A DNA stretch of 57,268 nt, filler included, from Dugesia japonica (taxonomy: Eukaryota), in assembly GCA_001938525.1 (NCBI GenBank). It is 6 parts of 6 records of this genome, joined end to end, with 100 filler letters (N's around TTAATTAATTAA, not from the genome) between each part and the next. Parts side by side here need not be neighbours in the genome. Positions count along the whole stretch, not along the records: positions 26,716 to 38,364 come from MQRL01608265.1; 5 more parts are not named here. One strand, written 5' to 3'. The position numbers were made by a program, and so were the translations under genes. Shown piece after piece: positions 2,373 through 38,464 of this stretch. Within the stretch, counting starts at the first letter, position 1. Every line of letters starts with the position of its first letter. Under the pieces are notes generated by a model. That model saw nothing but the letters and a program-made list of their open reading frames with translations, had not been told where the DNA came from and did not search any database.

Positions 2373-3428
2373 AATAAAATATTCATATTCTTAATTTATA
2401 ATATTCATATTCAAGAGCTGCTATCAATAAAATTAACTGAATTCCCCCATGGGCAACAAAGTAATGTTATATTCCCTTATAAATTTGAAACTTCGTATGA
2501 AATGTTCATAAATGAAACAGAGTTATCAGCACAATGACCAGAAATAACAAATGAAGAATATAATAATTACAAAGTCAGAATGGATGAAATAAGGAAGCAA
2601 TAATTTGCTNNNATAATATGAATCTAGAAATATACTTATTTCAAACATTTCGCCTAGATTGGAGCCATTACGATTTGTTTCCTTGCCAGGATTAAGCAAG
2701 ATTTTCATTTCCTGTGCTATTATAACTGTTAAAGGGAACGATTATTGGTGTTTGAATATTCAAATTATAATCACTAAGTTTATCCATAAAATTAATTCAA
2801 ATACTAAATACAAACTAATAAAAACTATTATTCAAACAAATCTACCTTTTTTATTTTTCTCTTTTTAAATTTGTTTTAATGAAAAATTTAAACAATTTTT
2901 AAATTAATTCTCTGCTCGTAATATCAATGCAACGTCCNNNNNNNNNNNNNNNNNNNNNNNNNNNNNNNNNNNNNNNNNNNNNNNNNNNNNNNNNNNNTTT
3001 CAATGAGCAATAGAGTTTACTTCTTCAAATAATTGTAAATCCATTTTCAACGAGATTTGACGAATGTTCAATAATATAGGATTTTGGAGTATATTAATAT
3101 GAATTTTCTTTTAACTATGGATAGCCCTATTGTAATATCTTAGTTTTTTCGAGTTTTACTTATATTGTCTCACTTTAATATGATGAACATTGCGGTTTTT
3201 GTTTCTTTCATTTGTCTTTTTCTCTAATTCCATTAACTAATTACTAACGGAAATAGCTAAACAGAAAAATGATAATGTTGACAATAATCATTTTATTTTT
3301 CACTATTTTGCTAATATTCTGAATTATATTTGCGACTCTGAATTGATTATAATNAACCTATAATCATAGTGAAATACATTTTGTTAATAACTTTATAAAT
3401 ATTGTTTTTGGAATAGTTTTACATTCAG

Positions 3429-3857
3429 AGAAGATCAAATAAAAATTCTTGAGCTCATCAAAAATGGAAAATTTGCCAAAGTCTATAAAGGGAAAAATTT
3501 GATAACTGGCTCTAACATAGTTTTGAAAAAGTACAGTTTAAAATGGAAGAACATTCGCAATTTTACACCATTGAAAGATGAATTAATTACTTTGTCGAAA
3601 TTTCAAAATGACGATAAAGTTGAATTCGTCAACTTAGACTGCGTATTTCAGACCAAGACACATTTCTTCATTGGAATGGAATATATTGAAGGGGTACTCA
3701 ACGTTTTCATTACTTATTTCATCATCAGTGTTTTTCTAGGGATCTCTAGATGCACGTATCCCTCTAACAGAAAATAAGATTATCGATTATTCCAAACAAA
3801 TATTGGGAGCATTGGATTATTTACACAGATCAGACATAATTTATCGGAATATGAAAT
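3429..3857 (+). CDS. Divergent Ser/Thr protein kinase-like gene, two exons (3429-3693, 3740-3857), subdomains I-VIb
   Basis: Spliced product is EDQIKILELIKNGKFAKVYKG..IVLKK..DELITL..FFIGMEYIEG|GSL..YSKQILGALDYLHRSDIIYRNMK. The 46-nt GT-AG intron is in frame. A possible decayed downstream exon lies at about 7881-7950. Confidence 0.8.
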
Positions 3858-8872: not shown

Positions 8873-8972
8873 NNNNNNNNNNNNNNNNNNNNNNNNNNNN
8901 NNNNNNNNNNNNNNNNTTAATTAATTAANNNNNNNNNNNNNNNNNNNNNNNNNNNNNNNNNNNNNNNNNNNN
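8873..8972. other. Artificial scaffold linker N44-TTAATTAATTAA-N44
   Basis: Exactly 100 nt with a six-frame-stop 12-mer, repeated identically five times in the window. Confidence 0.95.
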
Positions 8973-9101
8973 CTGTAGATAGAGTTACTTTAATTTTACC
9001 TAAAATTATTTATATTTATAAAATTATTATTTTAAGTGATTATTGAATTGCTAAAAAATCATATTCTGAATTATTAAAACCCAAATTATTACTAAAATAA
9101 A

Positions 9102-9737
9102 ATGGATGAACTAGTTGAAGGTGATAATCCCAACGGACCCCATTTAAATTTAAATGAGAGCGAGTTAATGCTAAATGTAAATGAAAATAAAAATTTATAT
9201 CCTAATATAAATAAACATATTTATAAAGATCATAAATATACTATTCAAGATCTTAAGACTAAATTATCAAATTTAAGAATTGTTAATATTGAATCAGATC
9301 TTTATTTCATTGATGATAAAATTAATCATTATAAAAATTTTTATAAAAGATGGTCAAGGTTAGATACTTCAATAAGATTTACAGAAATATTTATAGGAAC
9401 AGCTGTTGGAATAACTGGAACAGTTTTAATTTCTTTAGGAACTTTTGGTGTTGGTGAATATTTTCCAATCATTTTAACTATACCAGTTTCCTGTATTCCT
9501 ATAATTGGAACTTTATATGCATCATTAATAATATCTAAAAAGAAGAAGTATAAAACCTTAATTCATGAATTAGAAACTGTTAAAAACAAATTATTTTTAT
9601 TTCACCAAAAAGCTTTTTCAGATGACATTTTAACTGATGAAGAAATATCTATTAGTACGAATTTGGTTAAGCAAATTAAAGATTTTATTTCTCGTGAAAA
9701 ACATTTTAAAAAGTTAAATATGAAAGTGAAATTTTAA
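9102..9737 (+). CDS. Intact 211-aa two-TM protein of the type found in Polinton/Maverick elements
   Basis: Pattern LYPNI...LRI..I...KI.HY..., two hydrophobic helices, KKKKY..L..L...KN.L..KA.SD..LTDEE resembles a recurrent Maverick accessory membrane protein family. Intronless with no stops. Recognition is from memory, not from a search. Confidence 0.6.
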   Translation: MDELVEGDNPNGPHLNLNESELMLNVNENKNLYPNINKHIYKDHKYTIQDLKTKLSNLRIVNIESDLYFIDDKINHYKNFYKRWSRLDTSIRFTEIFIGTAVGITGTVLISLGTFGVGEYFPIILTIPVSCIPIIGTLYASLIISKKKKYKTLIHELETVKNKLFLFHQKAFSDDILTDEEISISTNLVKQIKDFISREKHFKKLNMKVKF

Positions 9738-26715: not shown

Positions 26716-28356
26716 TTAGTACAAATTCCGACTAACGAGTTCCCAGATAAACTCCATTTCTCAAAATAGTTATTCAAAACAAGAGAATATTTTCTAATGT
26801 CCAATAGACTTTTTTTATATTAATTATATTTTCTCATTTTCACATTAATTATTAATTGTTCAACAAGATTGATATCTAATTGAAATTTTTTTATAAAATT
26901 ACTTTAAAGATTTTTTATTTGAAAAATGTGGAATTAATTATTTATAATTAATGAAATAAGAAATGAATTTATTTTGAAAGAACACCATTAACTCTACATG
27001 AGAAATTTTGTCATAACTATTATAAATTAATGGTATAAATAATTCTTTTTTGTAAATAACTAGTAATTTGATCAATAGCCTTCCTTTTTAAAAATTTTTA
27101 ATAAATATATTATTGTTCAGTTATTAAAAATGACATCAATTTAATTAATTTAAAGAAAAACTTAAAAATAAAAAAAAATTAAATATTTGGTATTTCTATT
27201 AATTATATTAAATATTTCATGGAATCTCCAATATCAAGACGTGAATCACAGTGAAACCAAATAAAATAGAATATATATTAAACTGTCGGTGCATTCATTT
27301 TTCATTTTTATTTCAATTTAAAACTCAAACTTTAATTAATGGTCTCAGTTTATTGGAATTTTTATTGTGAATTTCCATTATTAGAACTTAGAAATGACAT
27401 TGATTAATAATTTAAATGTCCAATTCCGTTAGAGTTGATTGAGCTTCATTTAGATTGTGAATTTAATTTAATTTAAAATCCATGTTAATGTTACATTTAT
27501 TAGTAGATTTAATTTTATTCTGAAAAGTTAATAATTCGGTCATTAATTAAATTTGCTATATTTCAAAAATAATATTTAAATTTTTCTAGTTATAATTAAT
27601 ATTTATTAAATTAATATTAAAGTAATTTAAATTGACATTGAATCTAAATACAAATTTTCTAATTAAAAATTTTAAATTTGTAAACGTTTTGTTAATATGA
27701 AGCGATATGATTACAGTTTGTATATTTTTTCTCACAAATTAATCGCCCATAAGTTTTTGTCATCTTAAATATGATTACAAAGCCAATGAGAAAAATGTTC
27801 TAGTATGTTTTCAACAGAAACTACCCAATGAGATATATAATACGAGTTCTTATACTCTTATCAATATCAATAAAGATATCAAGTAAATAATCAATATTTC
27901 ATTAGTCATCTATTTACTCGAAATATTGATTAATATATCTATACTACTTTTGTAATATTTTAATTTAAATTTATTTTAAGAGAATTTGTATATCCAACTA
28001 TTTTCATGACTTTCGAATTTGATGGTTTTATTTAGATATATTTCCAGAGAATTATTAGATTTATTATTTCTCTTCATATCTTAATAAAGAACGTTTAATT
28101 ATTACAGATTTAATGAAAATCAGTAAAAAAAATTAGAATTACTCTTGAGGTTTTGGTCAAACTTATAAATTTAAATCGAAAGTAGAATGATGAAATTCTG
28201 AACTTTTCATCCTCTTAATTGAAATTTTGTACAACTATTCAATGTATTTTATTTGTTTATGAAATGAAAATTTTAAATTCAATTTCGTAAATAAACTTAT
28301 CGAATACTTAATAATTATATTATTAAACTGATAAAATTCGTTATACAATTAAACTT

Positions 28357-28515
28357 ATTGTGAGAATAATTTTTGGATTTAAACCATGGATCACATTTTT
28401 AAAGTTTCAATATATTCAAAGTGTAGATCAAAATGTTATTGTTTTTTAATTTTTTAGATATCTGAATTTTCGACAATAGCGTTCTTCAGGGATTTACTTT
28501 TTGATTTATTCAAGT
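28357..28515 (-). repeat. Diverged family-A terminal repeat with degenerate hammerhead (28456-28496)
   Basis: Minus strand reads aaatcc-CTGAAGA-acgctattgtc-GAA-aatt-C-agatat. The distal attgtgagaataatt motif is retained. Confidence 0.5.
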
Positions 28516-28781
28516 TAATAATTGAAATAAAAATAATTTTGAAATTTAATTTATTTTTAAAACACAATGACAAATTTTTAATAAAAAATAAATCAAGCCA
28601 CAAGTGACGTAATTAGAAAATTTGGGCCCTTATGCAAAAGTTTTTAAAGGGCGTCTAATTTTTTTTATTTAGAACAAGTACTAGGGATATAACTAGTTAA
28701 TTAATTAATTTAAATAAGTATGTAATAAACGATGGCAAATGTTTGATAAAAAATAAATAACGCTATTTATAATAAAAAATT

Positions 28782-28825
28782 ATTGTGAAATATTTCGATG
28801 GATCAACCGACATCATCAGAGAAAA
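28782..28825 (-). ncRNA. Degenerate hammerhead, family B, in an inverted repeat at the 5' edge of a PLE
   Basis: Minus strand reads ttct-CTGATGA-t-gtcgg-ttgat-ccatc-GAA-atattt-C-acaat, directly upstream and antisense of the PLE RT remnant. Confidence 0.6.
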
Positions 28826-28829
28826 TGAA

Positions 28830-31800
28830 AAGTTCCTTTGCTAGAAACAATAGATCAGAAAAATATTTATGGGAAAATAATGTTAGTGATCATACTGAAA
28901 TAAATATACCTACCTTTCGTGAATTGTTGACAATAGCTACGGATAATGTTTCGTTTTGGTATTTTAATAAATGATATAAACATATAGATAGGGTGGCTAT
29001 GGATATTCCACTATGTCCTACAATAGCGTTGATTTTCTTGAATAAACTTGAAGAACGAATGAGCTTATTTTCTTTGAATAAGCCTCCTGCTTATAAAATA
29101 TATGTTGATGGCATTTTTCTTATTTTTGGTAATCGTGAACTTGTTTTGCCTTTTCAAAGTTTTTATGAATGAAAGTTTTTTTTCTGTAGAGGAGAAAAGA
29201 AATGATATTTTGCTTTTTTGGATATTTAAATTGAAAGGAAATCATCATATAATATACGACTGTAATCTACAGAAAGAAAAGTGATACCGGAATAAATAGA
29301 TTTTGTGATCCAGCTTATAATAGGAACACGATAAAATGCTCAGTGTTTCGTTTTTGGTCATTGTCCTCAACATATTCAAAATCCATGAATAGCATCGAAT
29401 ATTTAATAAAGTTACTGTAAGCAAACTGATATAATAAACAATTTTTAAATTCGTTGACTTCGCAGATCATTGATAAATTTTAGTTCGTAACAATATTGAT
29501 TTCGATATATAAGTTGAAACTATGTTGAAAAATTTTGAATCTAATAACACTTTGTCAAATTGTGCTGGACCATTTATTTTATCGATTCCTTATTCTGAAG
29601 GTTTCAAAAAGTTAAAATATTCGATTCTGAAAGCTGTTAAGGATCTTTCTTTATTGAAAATCGTTTCTACTTTTCAAAAAATTGTTCATAACTTTGTTTA
29701 TAAATTTTTATGCAATGGGTGTGATACCCAATAGATTAGAGAGACTGCTCGGAATCTCTGTAAAAGTGTCTGCTGTGCTCATAATTAAACTAAGTAACAC
29801 TGTTTGAAATATCCCTTATTATCACAAATTTGATATTTAAACAATTATCATTTAATTTCAATTTTAATTTTAATAATAATTCTACATCACTTCCCGTTTT
29901 AAATTGAGTGCACCGATTAAATTGCTGGCTTCAATCTGTCTATTGAAACGATCTTTGGAGAGCCATCTAAATTGATTTCGAATGTTTTGTTATCTTCAAT
30001 ACGACTGCTACCTCTCAGCTACCAGTGTTGTTAGTTTTGCTCAAGCGTGACAGCCATCGTAAATCCTTTTGAATTCTCTGAATTGCAGTGATTTCGGTAG
30101 AATGTTTCGCGGTTTGGGTGGCGATATGTCTATAACTATTCCTACCTCAGAGACACTTAATTTCAAGGAAGATTTTTTTAGCGATGCTTCAAGGTTCTCG
30201 ATTGCTTGCTGTTTGATTATTTCATCCATTGTTATGTGTTCGACTTTCTTGCTTAGTGCGTTTATTCTTGAAAGAAAATCCGCTACTGTGTTCTCCAATT
30301 CCTTTAAATATTCTAATTTGAAGGAAAATTGAGCAAGGAATTCAAGCCATATACATTGTCTGGGATTTTGATCTTTCATAGTTGCAATATTTAATAAAGG
30401 CTGGTTGCAAGTCTGTATTGTGAATTGTGTAGAATCTAAATTGTGCTGGGAATTCTTAACTGCAACTACTACTGCTAATAGTTTTCTGTCGAAGGTTGAG
30501 GAATTTCTCTACAGAAGACAATTTTCTTGGAAAAAAGACAATTAAAGAATGTTTTCCTTCGGACTTCACTTGCTCCAATGCAGCTCCAACTGTTTCTAAT
30601 GATGCATCAGTTCTTAACATAAATTGTTTTGACTTGTTTTTTTTCGATAATTAGCTTGTAGAGTGGTGCAATATTTTCAGATAAATTTAAAATGAGCCAA
30701 GGATAAAAGGCAACGCAGCCTTCAAATTTTTGCAAGCTCTTTAAGTTGGCTGGAAGGCTAATTTCTTTCAAGCGTTCGATTGTTTTAGTTTTAGGAAGGA
30801 TTCCATTTTCTGATATATTTAATCCTAAAACTTCTAAATACATATATCTGCATAGATCTCTAACTAAATAGAATAGATGGTGTTAGTTACTTTTTGTTTA
30901 TAATCTTCANAGTCTACTTTATTTTTTGAAAATATTAGAATATCATCAATTTATGATATCGCGAAGTCTTGATGCCCTCTCAGAATTGTATCCACGAATC
31001 TTTGAAAAATAGCTGAGCAATTCTTCAACCCAAACGGCATTTTACAGCATTCTAATAAACCAAATGGTGTGATAACCACAGTTTTGTAAATGTCCTTTTC
31101 TGCTATCGCTATTTGGTAATTGCTTTTTAAAGGTCTAATTTGCTGAAAATTGTAGAGCCCCCAAGTTTATCCAATAGATCTTGGATTCTAGGTAAAGGGT
31201 ATTTGTCTGGTAGTGTTAGTTCATTTAATTGTCTGTAGTCTCCACAAGGTCTCCATGATCTATATTGTTTCTTAACGACAACAAGTGATGAGGCCCAGTT
31301 CATGTTGATAGGGAAAATTATTCCAGCTCTCAGAAGACGATCAAATTCTCTTTTTACTGCATCAAATTTTTCTATAAATAATCGTCGAAATTTCTGTGCT
31401 ACTGGATTGCTTTTCGTGTTAATATTCATCTGAATATTAAAATGACCATTTTGTAGGACTTGATTTGCCATTTCTACACAACAAAAGATTTTATGGTTCA
31501 ATAATTTAAACTATGGGTTGATTTACACATGCTGATTTTAGGGTGTTATTTAATATGTAAATACTTTTACTATATATATGTAATATATTTACTACAGATT
31601 ATAAATATAGTGATATGTGTAGATATCCTTATGTTAATAACAAAAATACACCTTTTAAAAATATGATATTTTCGATGTATAATAAATAAATTGTACAGTA
31701 TAGCTATAGCTTAGAGATCAAAATTTTATTTTAAAAAGAGAAGCCAATTAAAGAGATAGGTTCTCTCAGTTAAATTGAGTCTAATTTTTCTAAAAAAAAT

Positions 31801-33810
31801 GATCAGTATTTATACTTATTTTACGTATGCTCTTGCTATCAGACACACACACACACAAAACAAATAACTATGCATATGCACATATTTAAAATAAATAATA
31901 CCTACTTTATTTTTTCACCAAAATAAATAATTCCTGCATTATTTTTAATAAAACCTAAATTTCCACTTTAATAAAATGAAATCAATAATATAAATTCCTT
32001 AAAATAAAATCAATAAGATAACACCTGTTCAAATTAAAATATCAAGTTGTAACAAATTTTCCACTATTTTAAAATTATAATACAATAAACCCGAAATAAT
32101 AAAATCATAAAATAATAAAAATTATTAAAGTCATATTGATTAATATAAAAAAGCCAAAATCAATGATAAATGCCGATATAGGATAATTGAATGAACTTGA
32201 ATAGGTTTAAATTCGAATATCAAATAATAAATAATAAAATAACAAAATCAATTTCAATTTCTCTGAACTTGAATGGGTTTGAATTCGAATATTGATTTGA
32301 TTGATCTCATGTATATATGTGTGTATATGACGTGTGCTTTAATTTGAACACAATAATCAAATCATATTGCCTAGAATGTCCAGGTATAGTGCGGCCGGAA
32401 GTAGAAAATTTTATGCATTTACTATTGCAGTTAATATTAACATCGTGATATGTAAAAAAGTTAGCACCCAATATAGGTGAGAATACATCTGCAACAATGA
32501 AATCCCACGTCATGGGGTTCTATGGTTACTGATGCTGAAAGAAAGAGTTCTGAGACCATAGCTTAATATTGGTTCAATGGTTGCAGACACCAATGAGTGA
32601 GTTGAACTACTACTAGCCAGCTTAAAAATTTCTTTTGGAAGAATACTTTTATCAGCTACACTGTCAAAAAGGAATGCTACTGCTGTTTTCTCTATATAAA
32701 GATCAATAAACAAAGATTTACGCTTGTCCAAGTCTAGTGTTGTATTAACACTAGTTGAGGAGACAGTGCTCGGTTCTACTGTCTCCTATGATCGTTTTCC
32801 GAATTGAGTGGATTCCAGTTGTACGGGCTTTGACATTTGATGATTTTATTTCCAAATTTTCTGTGATAAAAGCATAATTGATCGGATGGTTTCGATTTCG
32901 ATTCATACTTGTTTCTATCATTTGATTTTTTATTAAAATTATCCTGTACTTTGAACAAGCTTGACGCTCTTTCATTTGAAATCTTGATGAGCTTATCAGC
33001 AAATTTCGCCATTTCTGATAAGGTAAGAAAATTCTTGCAAATCTGAATATCCGCAGGCATCATGGATTCAAATTAATTTTTGAGAAGAACATTAGTTTCC
33101 AAGTCAGCATTCTTGTCGAAGCATTTGACAAGGGCTTGGAGTTTTCGTAGAGCAATGAAAGGAGATTGTCCATCCAATGATTGAGTGTTCCAAATCTTTG
33201 AATTGCATCTTGTGGAGTTAACTCGTAATTCTCCAAAAGTGCATTTTTTAAATTGGTGTAACTAGGATCACCGGAATATTTAAGAAATGTTTCATATTCT
33301 ATGAGAATTTCCATTGGCAAATTAGATATTAGGTGCTGGAATTTGGTCGATTCTGAAGTAATCCTGGCGAGTTTGAAAAAGTTCTCCACTTGCAGAAACC
33401 AGAGTTTGACATTGCGCATAAGAATTTCAAACATGCATTGATTACAACTGTCACTGTTACTTCTGACAACAGATGTTATGTTCATAATTAAACTAAGTAA
33501 CAAATTTTGAAATATCTCTTATTATCACAAATATGATATTTAAACAAATATAATTTAATTTCAATTTTAATTTTAATGTATAATTATTAATATTAATTTT
33601 ACAGTGTCCAAGAGCATAATCGTTTGGTAGTGGTAGTAATATTACCGAGCATAAATATCAAACTAAATGTAATACATTTCAAATTTTAAAAATTTGTCTA
33701 AACAATTTAAAAATTATTAGGAGAGAGTACTATGTGAGGCGTTAATGATTAGATTTCATATACTGAGAATTAATGTAAAAGCAGCTCTTTCTACTAAATT
33801 AATATAAAGT
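28830..33810 (+). mobile_element. Decayed Penelope-like element (RT + GIY-YIG), split by a Gypsy insertion: 28830-29770 and 33604 to about 33810
   Basis: RVAMDIPLCPTIA (GVAMGSPL.P..A) and YVDGIF (YVDD). VYKFLCNGCDTQ*IRETARNLCKSV|QEHN is a GIY-YIG motif restored on removing 29771-33608. Confidence 0.85.
29771..33603 (-). mobile_element. Gypsy (Mag-like) LTR retrotransposon, decayed, with both LTRs and TSD
   Basis: LTRs 33474-33603 and 29771-29886 (TG..CA). TSD GTGTC at 29766-29770 and 33604-33608. PPT gggaagtga and PBS-like tgttgtcagaagt. Gag WFLQVE..F..RITS..TKF and LCFYHRKFG, protease FLFDSVAD, RT WRPCGDYRQLN..KYPLP..FSKLDL and an RNase H remnant. Integrase is largely deleted. Confidence 0.93.
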
Positions 33811-33875
33811 TTTTTGATTTAAAATTCTAAATTTTTCATAAGTTTTTATAGAATATTATTTTTATTTAGTTTTTA

Positions 33876-33951
<76 letters not shown>

Positions 33952-34561
33952 NNNNNNNNNNNNNNNNNNNNNNNNNNNNNNNNNNNNNNNNNNNNNNNNN
34001 NNNNNNNNNNNNNNNNNNNNNNNNNNNNNNNNNNNNNNNNNNNNNNNNNNNNNNNNNNNNNNNNNNNNNNNNNNNNNNNNNNNNNNNNNNNNNNNNNNNN
34101 NNNNNNNNNNNNNTTATTATTATTATTATAATTATTATTATTATTATTATTATTATTATTTGATTATTTTATTTTTATTTTAATTTTTTATTGTTTTATA
34201 TATATCTTTTTAGGTTTATAATTTTTAAATTTAATTCGTAAAAATTGACAATTTTGATTTTTTGATGTTTTAAGATTTCAATACATTTTATATTTATTAA
34301 ATTTGAAAAGAAAATTCAAAAAAATGAAAATGTTTTGATTTTTTGAGCCCGGAGAAAAATGATATGTAGAATCAATAAAGCATGGTATAATAAGAATTGT
34401 GGGGAAGTTAGTGAAAATAACAAAAAGAGAATGTTGCAATAAATTGTTGAATCGAACGAGCACTGAGCCGGGATACTAATTATTATTATCAGCATTATTA
34501 TTGTTATTATTATTATTATTATTATTATAAGAAAAAAATGGACGACGATATTTGAATTATA

Positions 34562-35815
34562 AAATTTTTTATGATTTTGAAAGTTTTCCAGATGCTGGGA
34601 ATAGTTTTTGATTCAACTATTCTGTTATAGAGTAATGTGAGTACTTTGCCTTAAGGATTTAATAACGCAATATCTCTATAGTAAATTCCATCTTGACTAG
34701 GACAAGAATTATTAGCTTTTTTAATTTCTGAGAGTACTTCGTTTTCACTAATTGGCTCGAGACTTAATGGCATGTCTGACATTTTGCAGTTTTTTAATAT
34801 GACATCCCAGCTTTTTATTTTTGGCTCTTCATGATTAAAATGACTGAGAATGCTTTCAAGATTTAGTATTACATTGTATATTGTTTTTGTTTAATATTTT
34901 TGTAACAGTCCGTTTCATATTAGTCAAAAATTGAAATCTGAGCTGATGTTTAATGGTTCACTCTTTTTGAATTTGGCCGAGATATGGTTTATGGAAATTT
35001 GATTTAAAGTTTATCTTCGGAATATTTTCTATTATTCTACTAAGAATTGTATTGGGATCTTGATTTGATATTAGGTAAACTAGCTCATTGCATTTTCTTT
35101 TCCTATTATTTAGAGTCAGCCTAGGCATTTTATTTGATTATACTTGTGTAATTTTTACTTTTAATGAGTGCTGTTCTCTGCAATGATTGGTTGAAGTTTT
35201 TTTGATTGTGTCATCAATATTTCTAAGATTTATATTTGTAAGAGGTTTATCAAGAGAAAAGTGTTTGATAAATGCATATAAGAGAATTTGGATAAATAGG
35301 CCTGATGGTCGAGTATCATATGAACAGTGACCTTGAGTTGTTACGCGATTATCAACTTCTTTAATTTCATTAATATTTGTAAGAAAATCACGACGTAAAC
35401 TGATATAATCTTTATTTTCTGATTCTGATGTTGGGTTAAGTATATAATAATCATCACAATTGTAATCCAATATGAAAAGTACCTTGTGATATTTTGTCGG
35501 TGCTAAAACAGCAAAATCTGTTGTTGTGAACAGACTTGTTCGATGTCAAGAAAATCCTTTAAGTATTCTGACGAGTTTTCGATAATTGCAGTACACATTG
35601 TAGTTCCTAGTAGCATAGACATGATCACCAAATTGAGGCCGTTGAAATACATTTGGATAATTTTATCATTTATTTTGCCATTAATCAAACTAAGAGAAGG
35701 TTTAATATCGTCAGGAATTTTTTCATTCAGTTCATACAATGAGTCATACATAGTTGTATTGTCAATTCTACGATTGAACAACCTTTTTTCTGTTTGTACA
35801 ATAAATACTTATCAA
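34562..35815 (-). mobile_element. Non-LTR retrotransposon fragment (NeSL/R2-group-like): Ulp1-type protease followed by start of RT
   Basis: INGKINDKIIQMYF.., H.VLFILD..YYILNP and Q...YD..SGLF resemble the C48 protease. Downstream on the same strand is PISENEVLSEIKKANNSCPSQDGIYY..P*GKVLTLLYNRIV...IPSIWK (RT domain 0-1). Confidence 0.7.
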
Positions 35816-35933
35816 TAAAAACTCATCAACTTTGCTGAAGACTCAAAAACCCATTTAACGTTACATTTTAGAAAAATTAACATAAAATCTTGATATTGTT
35901 TCATGCAAATAGTTAAACAAGAAGAAAATTCAG

Positions 35934-36917
35934 ATGAAATCGAATTTTTTCTTTACACTTTTACCAAGTAATAGTAGTCCGTTAGTTCATCCAAATAATA
36001 CTGCTAGTAAATACATTGTTGAGCTTAAAAATTCAATTTACATGGATGGTAATTGGGAAGTTGCAATGATGGATTTCACCATTGTATATTCAGCATGCCA
36101 ATTTACAGTCAATCCAGGATTGTGTATGAATTTTTTAAAATAATTGTTGTTAACAAACAAACAGTTCTTTTAACTCTTACTAGTAAAAGCAAATATCAAA
36201 ATAATAAGGAAACAGATATACAAAGCAAAGAATAAAAATACAATAACCGTTGTTAGTGATATTAAATTCCACACTTTATCGTTACATACTATAGAAAATT
36301 TGGAAAGATTTTTGTATTATAGAGCTTATGTAACACAAAAGGGTAATATTGTAAGTCTTTGATACTAGTAAACATATTGATGATAAAACTTTTGCTATTC
36401 GATTTCATACCTTTAAAAAGGATGATACTGTTGAACAAATAAAAATTAATTATTACTATACGATTGTAACTAAACATTATTTTCAATTTGAAACCGATTT
36501 TTATATAAAGGATTTAAAATAACTAAATGAGTATATTAAAAAAAATTACTAGGATTAAATGAATCGCAATTTACTCGAATACAAATTGGTGATAAACAAC
36601 TAAAATATGAAAGCATCAAGAAACCAAGAATATTAAAGGGTTATAATGAAATGTACATCTATTGTAGTATTGTTGAGCCTATTGTTGTTGGTGATGTTAA
36701 TATTCCTTTATTAAAAGCTGTATGGATAGAACAACATGAGAACGATGAAGTAGTTCAAATAATTGTTGATCATCCAACGTATTTACCTATTTCTTCATCA
36801 TATATAAACAATAAAGAAATCAATTTACATGATGATAGTGGAAAACTAATCAACTTTGCTGAAGATTCAAAAACAGATTTAACGTTAAATTTAAGAAAAA
36901 TTAATAATGAATTCTGA
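35934..36917 (+). pseudogene. Polinton/adintovirus-like minor capsid protein (penton), disrupted
   Basis: N-terminal FFTLLPSNSS..HPNNT.S....L...I...GNWEVAM and C-terminal MYIYCSIVEP.VVGD..PLL..V...P.YLP...EINL.DD.GK.INF...LTL.. motifs. The middle has stops and frameshifts. Confidence 0.85.
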
Positions 36918-37404
36918 TATTGTATTATTGTATAGTACTAGCCAAGGAGGTGAAGAATTACCTTACTTTCTTGGAAAGCCATATGGATCTGGTTGGTTAC
37001 GAACTATAGGGAGATTTGCTTTACCTATTCTTAGACGTATTGGTTCTTTTGGTATGAAAACCGCTCAAGATATACTAGCTAATGACGGAAAATTACTACC
37101 CACATTGAAATCAATTGCATTAGCTGAACTTAGAAATGTAGTTTCTTCCTTAACAATTGTAGTTACCAGTATGATTCCAAAGGTAGCAAGTATATTACCA
37201 CAAAGTATAACTAATAAAATACCATCTGAAATAATTAATATGCTAACAAATCAATCTAAAACAGAACCAACTAATAGAAAATGCATAAAATCACATGCAT
37301 TATGTATAAACAAACGAATGAGAAAGGATGGAACAATATTTGGAAAACGATTTGTGGTAAAACTGAATTATGTATTTTTGATCGACCATCTCCTGAAGCT
37401 GTAA
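36907..37404 (+). CDS. Small Gly-rich/amphipathic virion-associated protein found between penton and hexon in adintovirus-like Polintons
   Basis: SQGGEELPYFLGKPYGSGWLRTIGRFALPILRRIG (Q.GG..P.F.G....G.G + amphipathic helix) with a basic C-terminus. It overlaps the penton stop and hexon start. Confidence 0.75.
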   Translation: MNSDIVLLYSTSQGGEELPYFLGKPYGSGWLRTIGRFALPILRRIGSFGMKTAQDILANDGKLLPTLKSIALAELRNVVSSLTIVVTSMIPKVASILPQSITNKIPSEIINMLTNQSKTEPTNRKCIKSHALCINKRMRKDGTIFGKRFVVKLNYVFLIDHLLKL

Positions 37405-38364
37405 TTGGAAATGGTAGTTTCGAAGATGTTTTACCTATGAATTAAATTTCTGAATCACATAGCGATGTAGAGTTTTTTATAAATGGATCTCAAACAGAAT
37501 ATTTGGATTCGAATGATACTTTATTGTATATTAAAGTAAAGGTAGTTGATAAGGATAATAAAGATTTGGCTGATAAGGATGATTCGGTTTCTAGTTCCTA
37601 TATGTTGCATACACTTTTTAAGGATGTAAATCTTTCTTTTAATAATTTCAAAATTGAAGATCGAAATGGATCTTATCTTCACAAAGCATTGATTTAAACT
37701 ATAATTAATTATAATGGTGATAGTAAGAATATATATCTTACAGCAATGGGATATGGATCAGAAGCAGATAGAAAAAAGTCTATTAAAACATCAAAACAAT
37801 TATCTCTATGCGGTTCAATACAACTCAATTTTATGGATCAACCCAAATACCTTATTCCAGTTGTCAACGTTCATTTTCGATTGAAACGAGCATATTCTAA
37901 GATTTGTTTGGAATCTGCAGCCAATGAACCTAAATATGTATTATTAGATGCAAAATTAATAGTTAGATTTGTACGCGTTGAACCCTCAGTACTAGTTGTT
38001 TATCAACTGGGACTAAAAAAGAAAAATGTTGTTTATCCAATAAGAAACAAAGATGTCGTTGCATTTTCAATTAGTAAATATAGTTCATCGTTTTATAAAG
38101 AACAAATCTTTGGTGACCGTAGATTTCCTAGCTTTAATCTGGTTACATTTCAAAGTGGAGAACAATATAATGGTAGTTATAAAAGCTCTAGTTCAACATT
38201 TCAAAATCTAGATGCTGTTTCCGTTTCCTTGAAAAAAACACTGATTATCTAGAAATATATACTCATGATTTTAAAAATGATAATTATACCACAACATATT
38301 TGCAATCTATAGTAAGAAATATGGAATATTTGGATAAGAATATGTATTGTGGAATAACACTTAA
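37328..38364 (+). pseudogene. Polinton/adintovirus-like major capsid protein (hexon, double jelly-roll), disrupted and cut by the scaffold end
   Basis: CGKTELCIFDRP..VI..GSFEDVLP..DVEFFING...YLD.NDT.LYIKVKV, LHTLF..V, QPKYLIP.V.V...L.R and AKL.VR.V...PSV match the MCP family pattern (C.KSELDLF..P). Confidence 0.88.
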
Positions 38365-38464
38365 NNNNNNNNNNNNNNNNNNNNNNNNNNNNNNNNNNNN
38401 NNNNNNNNTTAATTAATTAANNNNNNNNNNNNNNNNNNNNNNNNNNNNNNNNNNNNNNNNNNNN
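38365..38464. other. Artificial scaffold linker
   Basis: N44-TTAATTAATTAA-N44. Confidence 0.95.

Follow-up and report, generated by a model that had tools for sequence, protein, structure and literature searches.

A penton, middle-gene and major capsid block damaged by mutations: most likely the remains of a dead Polinton/Maverick from a very large family, in a probably planarian genome

Capsid-encoding Polintons of planarians have been in print since 2014, when Krupovic et al. (PMC4028283) listed four of them for Schmidtea mediterranea; in their Table S1, three are marked as carrying a major capsid protein (MCP) and all four as carrying a penton and an ATPase. Maverick expansions have been reported in Dugesia (10.64898/2025.12.11.693146), and planarian Polintons are repressed by the PIWI protein SMEDWI-2 (PMC8532177). 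Polinton virions have not been observed so far (10.1101/2023.08.22.554363). In the Beta-class adintoviruses described by Starrett et al. (2021, PMC8502044), the genes follow the order integrase, penton, “Cupiennin”, hexon and adenain, and a membrane-active role has already been proposed there for the small “Cupiennin” gene. Vertebrate Mavericks, as presented by Barreat and Katzourakis (2021, PMC8097293), carry the equivalent module of integrase, minor capsid protein, PW, major capsid protein and protease. According to established Polinton biology, MCP trimers would form the faces and pentons the vertices of the capsid made by a complete element; an A32-like ATPase would package the DNA, an adenain-like protease would mature the particle, insertion would be the task of an rve-chromodomain integrase, and PolB would copy the element.

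The window, that is the whole stretch of 57,268 nucleotides that we analyzed, is AT-rich (16–38% GC per kb). It consists of concatenated scaffold pieces, as indicated by five occurrences of an N44-12 nt-N44 pattern at 8873, 17394, 26616, 38365 and 47885. The capsid genes form the right end of the piece 26716–38364; the artificial linker (N44 + 12 nt + N44, 38365..38464, no strand) follows, and another piece begins beyond it. The block itself (35934–38364) comprises genes for a penton, a small middle protein and an MCP, all in the same orientation and collinear with intact relatives, which are proteins from public metagenome-type assemblies (P0001, P0014, P0052 and others). When these single-ORF relatives were aligned to the window, no space was left for introns in any of the three genes. 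An earlier note, made from the sequence alone, had described three co-oriented, overlapping and intronless genes, and this description was borne out, with an overlap of 11 nt between penton and middle gene. An intron-containing host gene is ruled out by the same collinearity.

Our preferred reading, to which we give a probability of roughly 0.92, is that this block is a mutation-damaged penton/middle/MCP module of a Polinton/Maverick and, most likely, what remains of a dead member of a very large family, in an animal genome that is probably planarian. Because the copy carries no terminal inverted repeat (TIR), target-site duplication, integrase or polymerase, its membership among the Polintons rests on homology and on its relatives.

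The MCP (hexon) gene (37347..38364, + strand) is 72–78% identical to residues 2–339 of the 406-aa protein P0001, in two matching parts of 72% and 78% identity (E 9e-144), and breaks off after residue 339 of 406, where the scaffold ends. It has no start codon, is interrupted by stops at 37443 and 37695 and changes frame near 38230–38243. Used as query, its largest unbroken piece (37698–38249) retrieved 13 proteins of 406–409 aa, 53–73% identical to it, among 1,006 candidates; none of them is named. At 14 of the 99 positions that are invariant in these 13 intact relatives, the window carries a change, compared with a mean of 3% and a maximum of 9% when each relative is left out in turn. An MCP phylogeny, one of the checks proposed in the earlier note, was built from 39 rows (38 candidates, which was all of them, plus the unbroken piece of the window), without named references and with a bootstrap that was not fully settled. 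In this tree, the window piece groups with P0001–P0003 (99/98), on an end branch of 0.29 versus 0.079 for P0001.

The penton, or minor capsid protein (PX), is likewise a pseudogene (35934..36917, + strand), delimited by tblastn with the intact proteins P0014, P0052 and P0053. Its ATG lies at 35934 and its stop ends at 36917. The match to P0014 and P0052 is piecewise, with identities of 38–61% and E-values down to 1e-63, and comparison with P0052 reveals at least three in-frame stops and two frame changes. The penton and hexon had been called broken, and our analysis confirmed this for both. When the last penton piece served as query, one 356-aa protein was found among 265 candidates, and this protein in turn found 53 among 1,196. 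The position of the penton, one gene upstream of the MCP, is the one expected in Polintons/Mavericks, where a single jelly-roll PX is adjacent to the MCP or one gene away.

Sequence profiles and searches of the three genes (Pfam with seven window pieces and four intact relatives, PHROGs, and PDB sequences) identified no capsid family, and of 58 pattern matches in IMG/VR viral contigs none was confirmed. Structures were predicted for the intact relatives and not for the broken window genes. The P0001 model, built with 13 sequences, reached a moderate pLDDT of 70. It matches the MCPs of Singapore grouper iridovirus (SGIV), PBCV-1, mavirus and Sputnik, with a best E-value of 6.6e-14 and a TM-score of about 0.58. 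In a viral library, its best match was a protein of Cotesia sesamiae Mombasa bracovirus (23% identity, E 1.4e-21), followed by adomavirus LO7; this bracovirus is itself listed as a Polinton source in Table S1 of PMC4028283. In the ESM Atlas, P0001 lies beside eukaryotic clusters, the best of which scores 0.98 and carries the double jelly-roll (DJR)-like family PF21738 on 30% of its members. The P0014 model (pLDDT 91), for which 34 of the 53 hits were aligned and shorter, partial and fused ones excluded, has the mavirus penton 6g42 as its top match (E 1.9e-8), adenovirus penton bases and Sputnik coming next, all at low TM-scores of 0.33–0.43. The predicted folds of the relatives are thus a double jelly-roll for the MCP and a single jelly-roll for the penton, as the earlier note had anticipated for a structure check. 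For the window, a DJR MCP of Polinton/Maverick type (Polintoviricetes) is recognized through its identity to P0001 and the DJR match of the P0001 model, the gene itself being broken.

Between these two genes lies a small basic gene in the position of PW/“Cupiennin” (36907..37404, + strand). It opens with an ATG at 36907, stays open over 165 codons until 37404 and has 56 representative relatives at E ≤ 0.001. The nearest of them, P0104 (135 aa), ends at about 37347, and the window ORF runs 19 codons further. Since P0104 ends at 37347 and the ORF continues to 37404, the native stop is lost. The middle ORF had been reported as open, which holds: it contains no internal stop or frame change, although it lacks its native stop. 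The claim that its product is Gly-rich and amphipathic also stands in part: glycine is enriched only in the first 50 residues (8/50, against 11/164 overall), whereas an 18-mer starting at about residue 30 has a hydrophobic moment of 0.74, a value reached in 6 of 1000 shuffles. The protein is basic, with 23 K+R versus 10 D+E. Of the 41 aligned members, 32 have a QxGG motif among their first 30 residues, and a conserved amphipathic stretch comes after it. Neither Pfam nor PDB searches gave a family for this gene. Its assignment to the “Cupiennin”/PW gene that Beta adintoviruses carry between penton and hexon relies on position and amphipathic character, not on sequence comparison with named Cupiennins.

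Adenain/Ulp1-type proteases cleave after Gly-Gly. Because the QxGG motif precedes a conserved amphipathic segment, the middle protein may be an internal virion protein from which a protease cut after QxGG would free a cationic amphipathic helix, and the freed helix might disrupt membranes at entry. Adenovirus protein VI would be a possible parallel. In a limited literature search, no paper came up on an equivalent of adenovirus protein VI in Polintons, which does not show that none is in print.

The gene context of the relatives was analyzed in 36 loci, obtained from 135 pattern matches in JGI metagenomes and including the near-duplicates L003/L004, L006/L007, L012/L013, L018/L019, L020/L021 and L008/L015. 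The order penton, middle gene, MCP was seen in 24 of them; eight of the other contigs start after the penton and four at the MCP start. A homologue of the middle gene lies directly upstream of the MCP in 32/36. An integrase was found upstream of the penton in 12 loci and an ATPase upstream in eight, a protease downstream in 18 and a polymerase in opposite orientation in five. The ATPase is located upstream of the integrase on the same strand, and between the two lies another small gene. Checked examples gave Pfam matches to rve in 3/3 integrases, to the chromodomain in 2/3 and to Pox_A32 in 2/2 ATPases. The proteases showed weak, below cut-off Peptidase_C5 matches in 3/3 and no match in another one; among 13 protease sequences, His, Asp, Gln and Cys residues do not vary. 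The polymerase of L002 matched a PHROG DNA polymerase (E 4.8e-20) and that of L019 matched none; none of three relatives' polymerases scanned matched PF03175 at E ≤ 0.01. Together with the predicted folds, this context supports the claim of a Polinton/adintovirus-type virion module, and the relatives are, as judged from their genes, Polinton/Maverick elements with a Beta-adintovirus virion layout.

Several accessory genes were observed in these loci. TATA-binding-protein-like genes (PF00352, E 1.7e-18 to 3.7e-12) occur in 5/36 (L002:2175-2621, L005:382-726, L020:2420-2869, L025:3733-4206 and L027:2414-2914). In three of these loci the gene lies on the upstream side of the ATPase, in the other two on the downstream side of the protease. 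Comparison of the ORFs of the 36 loci revealed no such gene in the window. Near related elements there are also an ORF resembling ubiquitin-conjugating enzymes (E2) and a gene for a dual-specificity phosphatase (L020:222-719, L006:952-1263). In many loci the protease is followed by a conserved ORF of about 155 aa that matches no Pfam family; the putative label EXO was given to it by a motif.

In comparison with the described systems, the relatives have the same order from integrase to protease as the Beta adintoviruses of PMC8502044 and the same module as the vertebrate Mavericks of PMC8097293. As expected for the Beta PolB described in PMC8502044, their scanned polymerases gave no match to PF03175. 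A chromodomain integrase, a defining trait of Beta adintoviruses, was seen in two of three relatives' integrases; the window copy has no integrase. For the N-terminal OTU-like domain of PolB, another such trait, a Pfam scan of three relatives' polymerases returned only an endonuclease VII domain. This domain lies inside the polymerase genes L002:9122-12391, L019:2815-6474 and L020:10209-14105, in line with the homing-endonuclease insertions reported in polinton pPolBs (PMC11161782). The arrangement differs outside the virion module. Unlike in the Beta adintoviruses as described, the ATPase and the second small gene of the relatives are placed upstream of the integrase on the same strand; in vertebrate Mavericks, ATPase and PZ lie with PolB on the opposite strand, whereas here only PolB does (PMC8097293). 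Motif searches in the supplement text of PMC8502044 gave no match. Polinton-1_SM, Polinton-2_SM and the others of Schmidtea mediterranea come from what is probably the same host group, as compared by their listing in PMC4028283. On this basis, the suggestion of a possibly undescribed lineage is unsupported, and a “new” member of the Polinton family may prove to be already known, named families having been compared by description rather than sequence.

Just upstream of the penton, its 3′ end recurs together with a decayed middle-gene start (35818..35904, + strand; 87 nt, 84% identical to 36842–36928), and this duplicate marks the left edge of the Polinton remnant. The similarity starts abruptly at about 35818, and tblastn with residues 325–346 of P0052 gave 82%. 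Summed contig depth over this edge rises from 1,747 to 86,368 in run X1, where reads from the main penton end also map. Tandem penton paralogues are present in 4/36 relative loci (L018, L020, L021 and L033), or four of the 14 that extend far enough to show which gene precedes the last penton. As L020 and L021 are 98% identical, these are three distinct elements. Both situations resemble the duplicate pentons of adintoviruses already published (bioRxiv 10.1101/2024.03.25.586562), and a tandem penton was accordingly rejected as a novelty. The tandem pentons of the relatives are old (29–44% protein identity), whereas the extra piece of the window is 84% identical in DNA and includes the middle-gene start, so that it is either a more recent duplication or a neighbouring copy that has been truncated.

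Further left, a degraded repeat (34558..35817, - strand) abuts the remnant. It weakly resembles a protein of R2 retrotransposons (E 0.18), and other searches, including Pfam, gave it no identity; a non-LTR retrotransposon is weakly supported. Judged by motifs, it may include a cysteine-protease-like part as in NeSL-type elements. It was rejected as a part of the Polinton, as it matches none of the 303 ORFs of the relatives and has a different depth level. A decayed Gypsy-like LTR retrotransposon (29771..33577, - strand) was also observed, with pieces of DUF7041 (gag-like), RVT_1 and RT_RNaseH and with 104-nt direct repeats that are 90% alike and 3,703 nt apart.

None of the 303 ORFs from the 36 loci matched the window outside the capsid block. 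Since integrase and ATPase lie upstream in relatives yet are absent from the 9 kb of upstream scaffold, which is consistent with truncation, the left part of the element is lost or displaced. The protease/polymerase side would fall beyond the scaffold end. The earlier explanation that the scaffold end hides the missing genes is thus valid for this side but not for integrase and ATPase. A search for terminal inverted repeats in the window yielded only AT-rich inverted repeats of at most 57 nt, both element ends being missing from the scaffold. After insertion, the copy would have lost its left arm (integrase and ATPase) at the junction with another repeat near 35818, and it would have decayed neutrally since.

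Part of the stretch is present in twelve sequencing runs from seven studies, the best of which holds 41% of its words. Of the 24 runs listed, four contig runs (at 85% likeness) and four raw RNA runs were mapped to 34300–38364. Three runs of organism A yielded 16,994, 12,967 and 13,195 contigs, against 2,401 for organism B, most of them 90–95% alike; 1,287 contigs of run X1 were at least 99% alike. Summed depth in X1, which is not equivalent to copy number, was 27 at 34300–34435, about 1,200–2,600 over the upstream repeat and 130,000–600,000 over the MCP. These contig numbers and the depth over the capsid block indicate that the Polinton family is very large and diverse in the host sequencing runs.

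Among about 47 million records of the four RNA runs, we detected 12, 542, 32 and 52 matching reads (638 in total), with both strands alike. Six were 95–99% alike and 0/638 reached 99%, and none of the twelve runs with part of the stretch is recorded as RNA. The RNA signal is low-level and comes from other copies or from DNA, with none traceable to the window copy. The sampled animals may be another strain: as the best run holds 41% of the words, the window copy may be absent from them, which weakens the RNA result.

Could the breaks be errors of a short-read assembly, produced by collapsed repeat copies, with a true locus that is intact or a different element? The assembly is indeed fragmented and its scaffold ends within a repeat, and to the incomplete word coverage is added that no listed contig spans the stretch. 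However, substitutions occur along all genes, including those at the invariant MCP positions, far above usual base-calling error, and the many near-identical contigs of X1 also speak for real sequence. Repeat collapse tends toward the common letter, not away from it, and the changes at invariant positions run against this direction. We consider assembly error very unlikely. That the block came from a free virus or from another organism co-assembled with the sample is less credible still, close to negligible: the nearest intact proteins do come from metagenome-type assemblies, but the scaffold is shared with the Gypsy element and microsatellites, the genes are broken, and organism-A runs from three studies contain related DNA in abundance.

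The open middle gene invites a different account, in which host use of a domesticated membrane-active peptide kept it open while its neighbours decayed. It is alone among the three genes in having no internal stop or frame change, and its protein has a strong amphipathic helix. Against this, its native stop is lost, and no read at least 99% alike was found in the four RNA runs. By a hand calculation from at least 9 breaks in about 2.0 kb of neighbouring genes, a 0.44-kb gene would escape breaks by chance in about 14% of cases at that density. Domestication is therefore very unlikely, slightly more so than assembly error, and a dead Polinton fragment remains our preferred reading.

By itself, this dead copy is of little weight, as degraded Polinton capsid modules are common in animals, 96% of the vertebrate Maverick copies surveyed in PMC8097293 being degraded like the window copy, and planarian capsid-gene Polintons are on record (PMC4028283). 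The family seems very abundant in a much-sequenced organism, which makes this a reasonable host in which to ask about particles and about the role of the middle protein. A far bolder proposal, which we regard as unlikely, is that the host harbours one of the largest capsid-encoding Polinton families of animals, with virion-competent members remaining, that the middle protein is an internal one which lyses membranes once a protease has activated it, in the role of adenovirus protein VI, and that the lineage recurrently carries its own TATA-binding-protein-like gene. If it were true, particle formation by animal Polintons would become directly testable in a tractable planarian model.

Other pieces of the window gave a few minor observations. 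An unbroken ORF of 213 codons (9096-9737, + strand) has no match in Pfam; its look-alikes in the ESM Atlas, at 0.90–0.91 and with a low recognition score, come from molluscs and Nucleocytoviricota and are unnamed. As a weak lead, it may be an accessory gene that belongs to a Polinton or to another DNA virus. The fragment at 39473-39739 (- strand), without a Pfam match, is, judged by a motif, presumably part of a mariner-like transposase. A protein-kinase exon (Pkinase, E 4e-5) is located at 3391-3777 (+ strand), and a second RT-RNase H fragment at 45527-45886 (+ strand).
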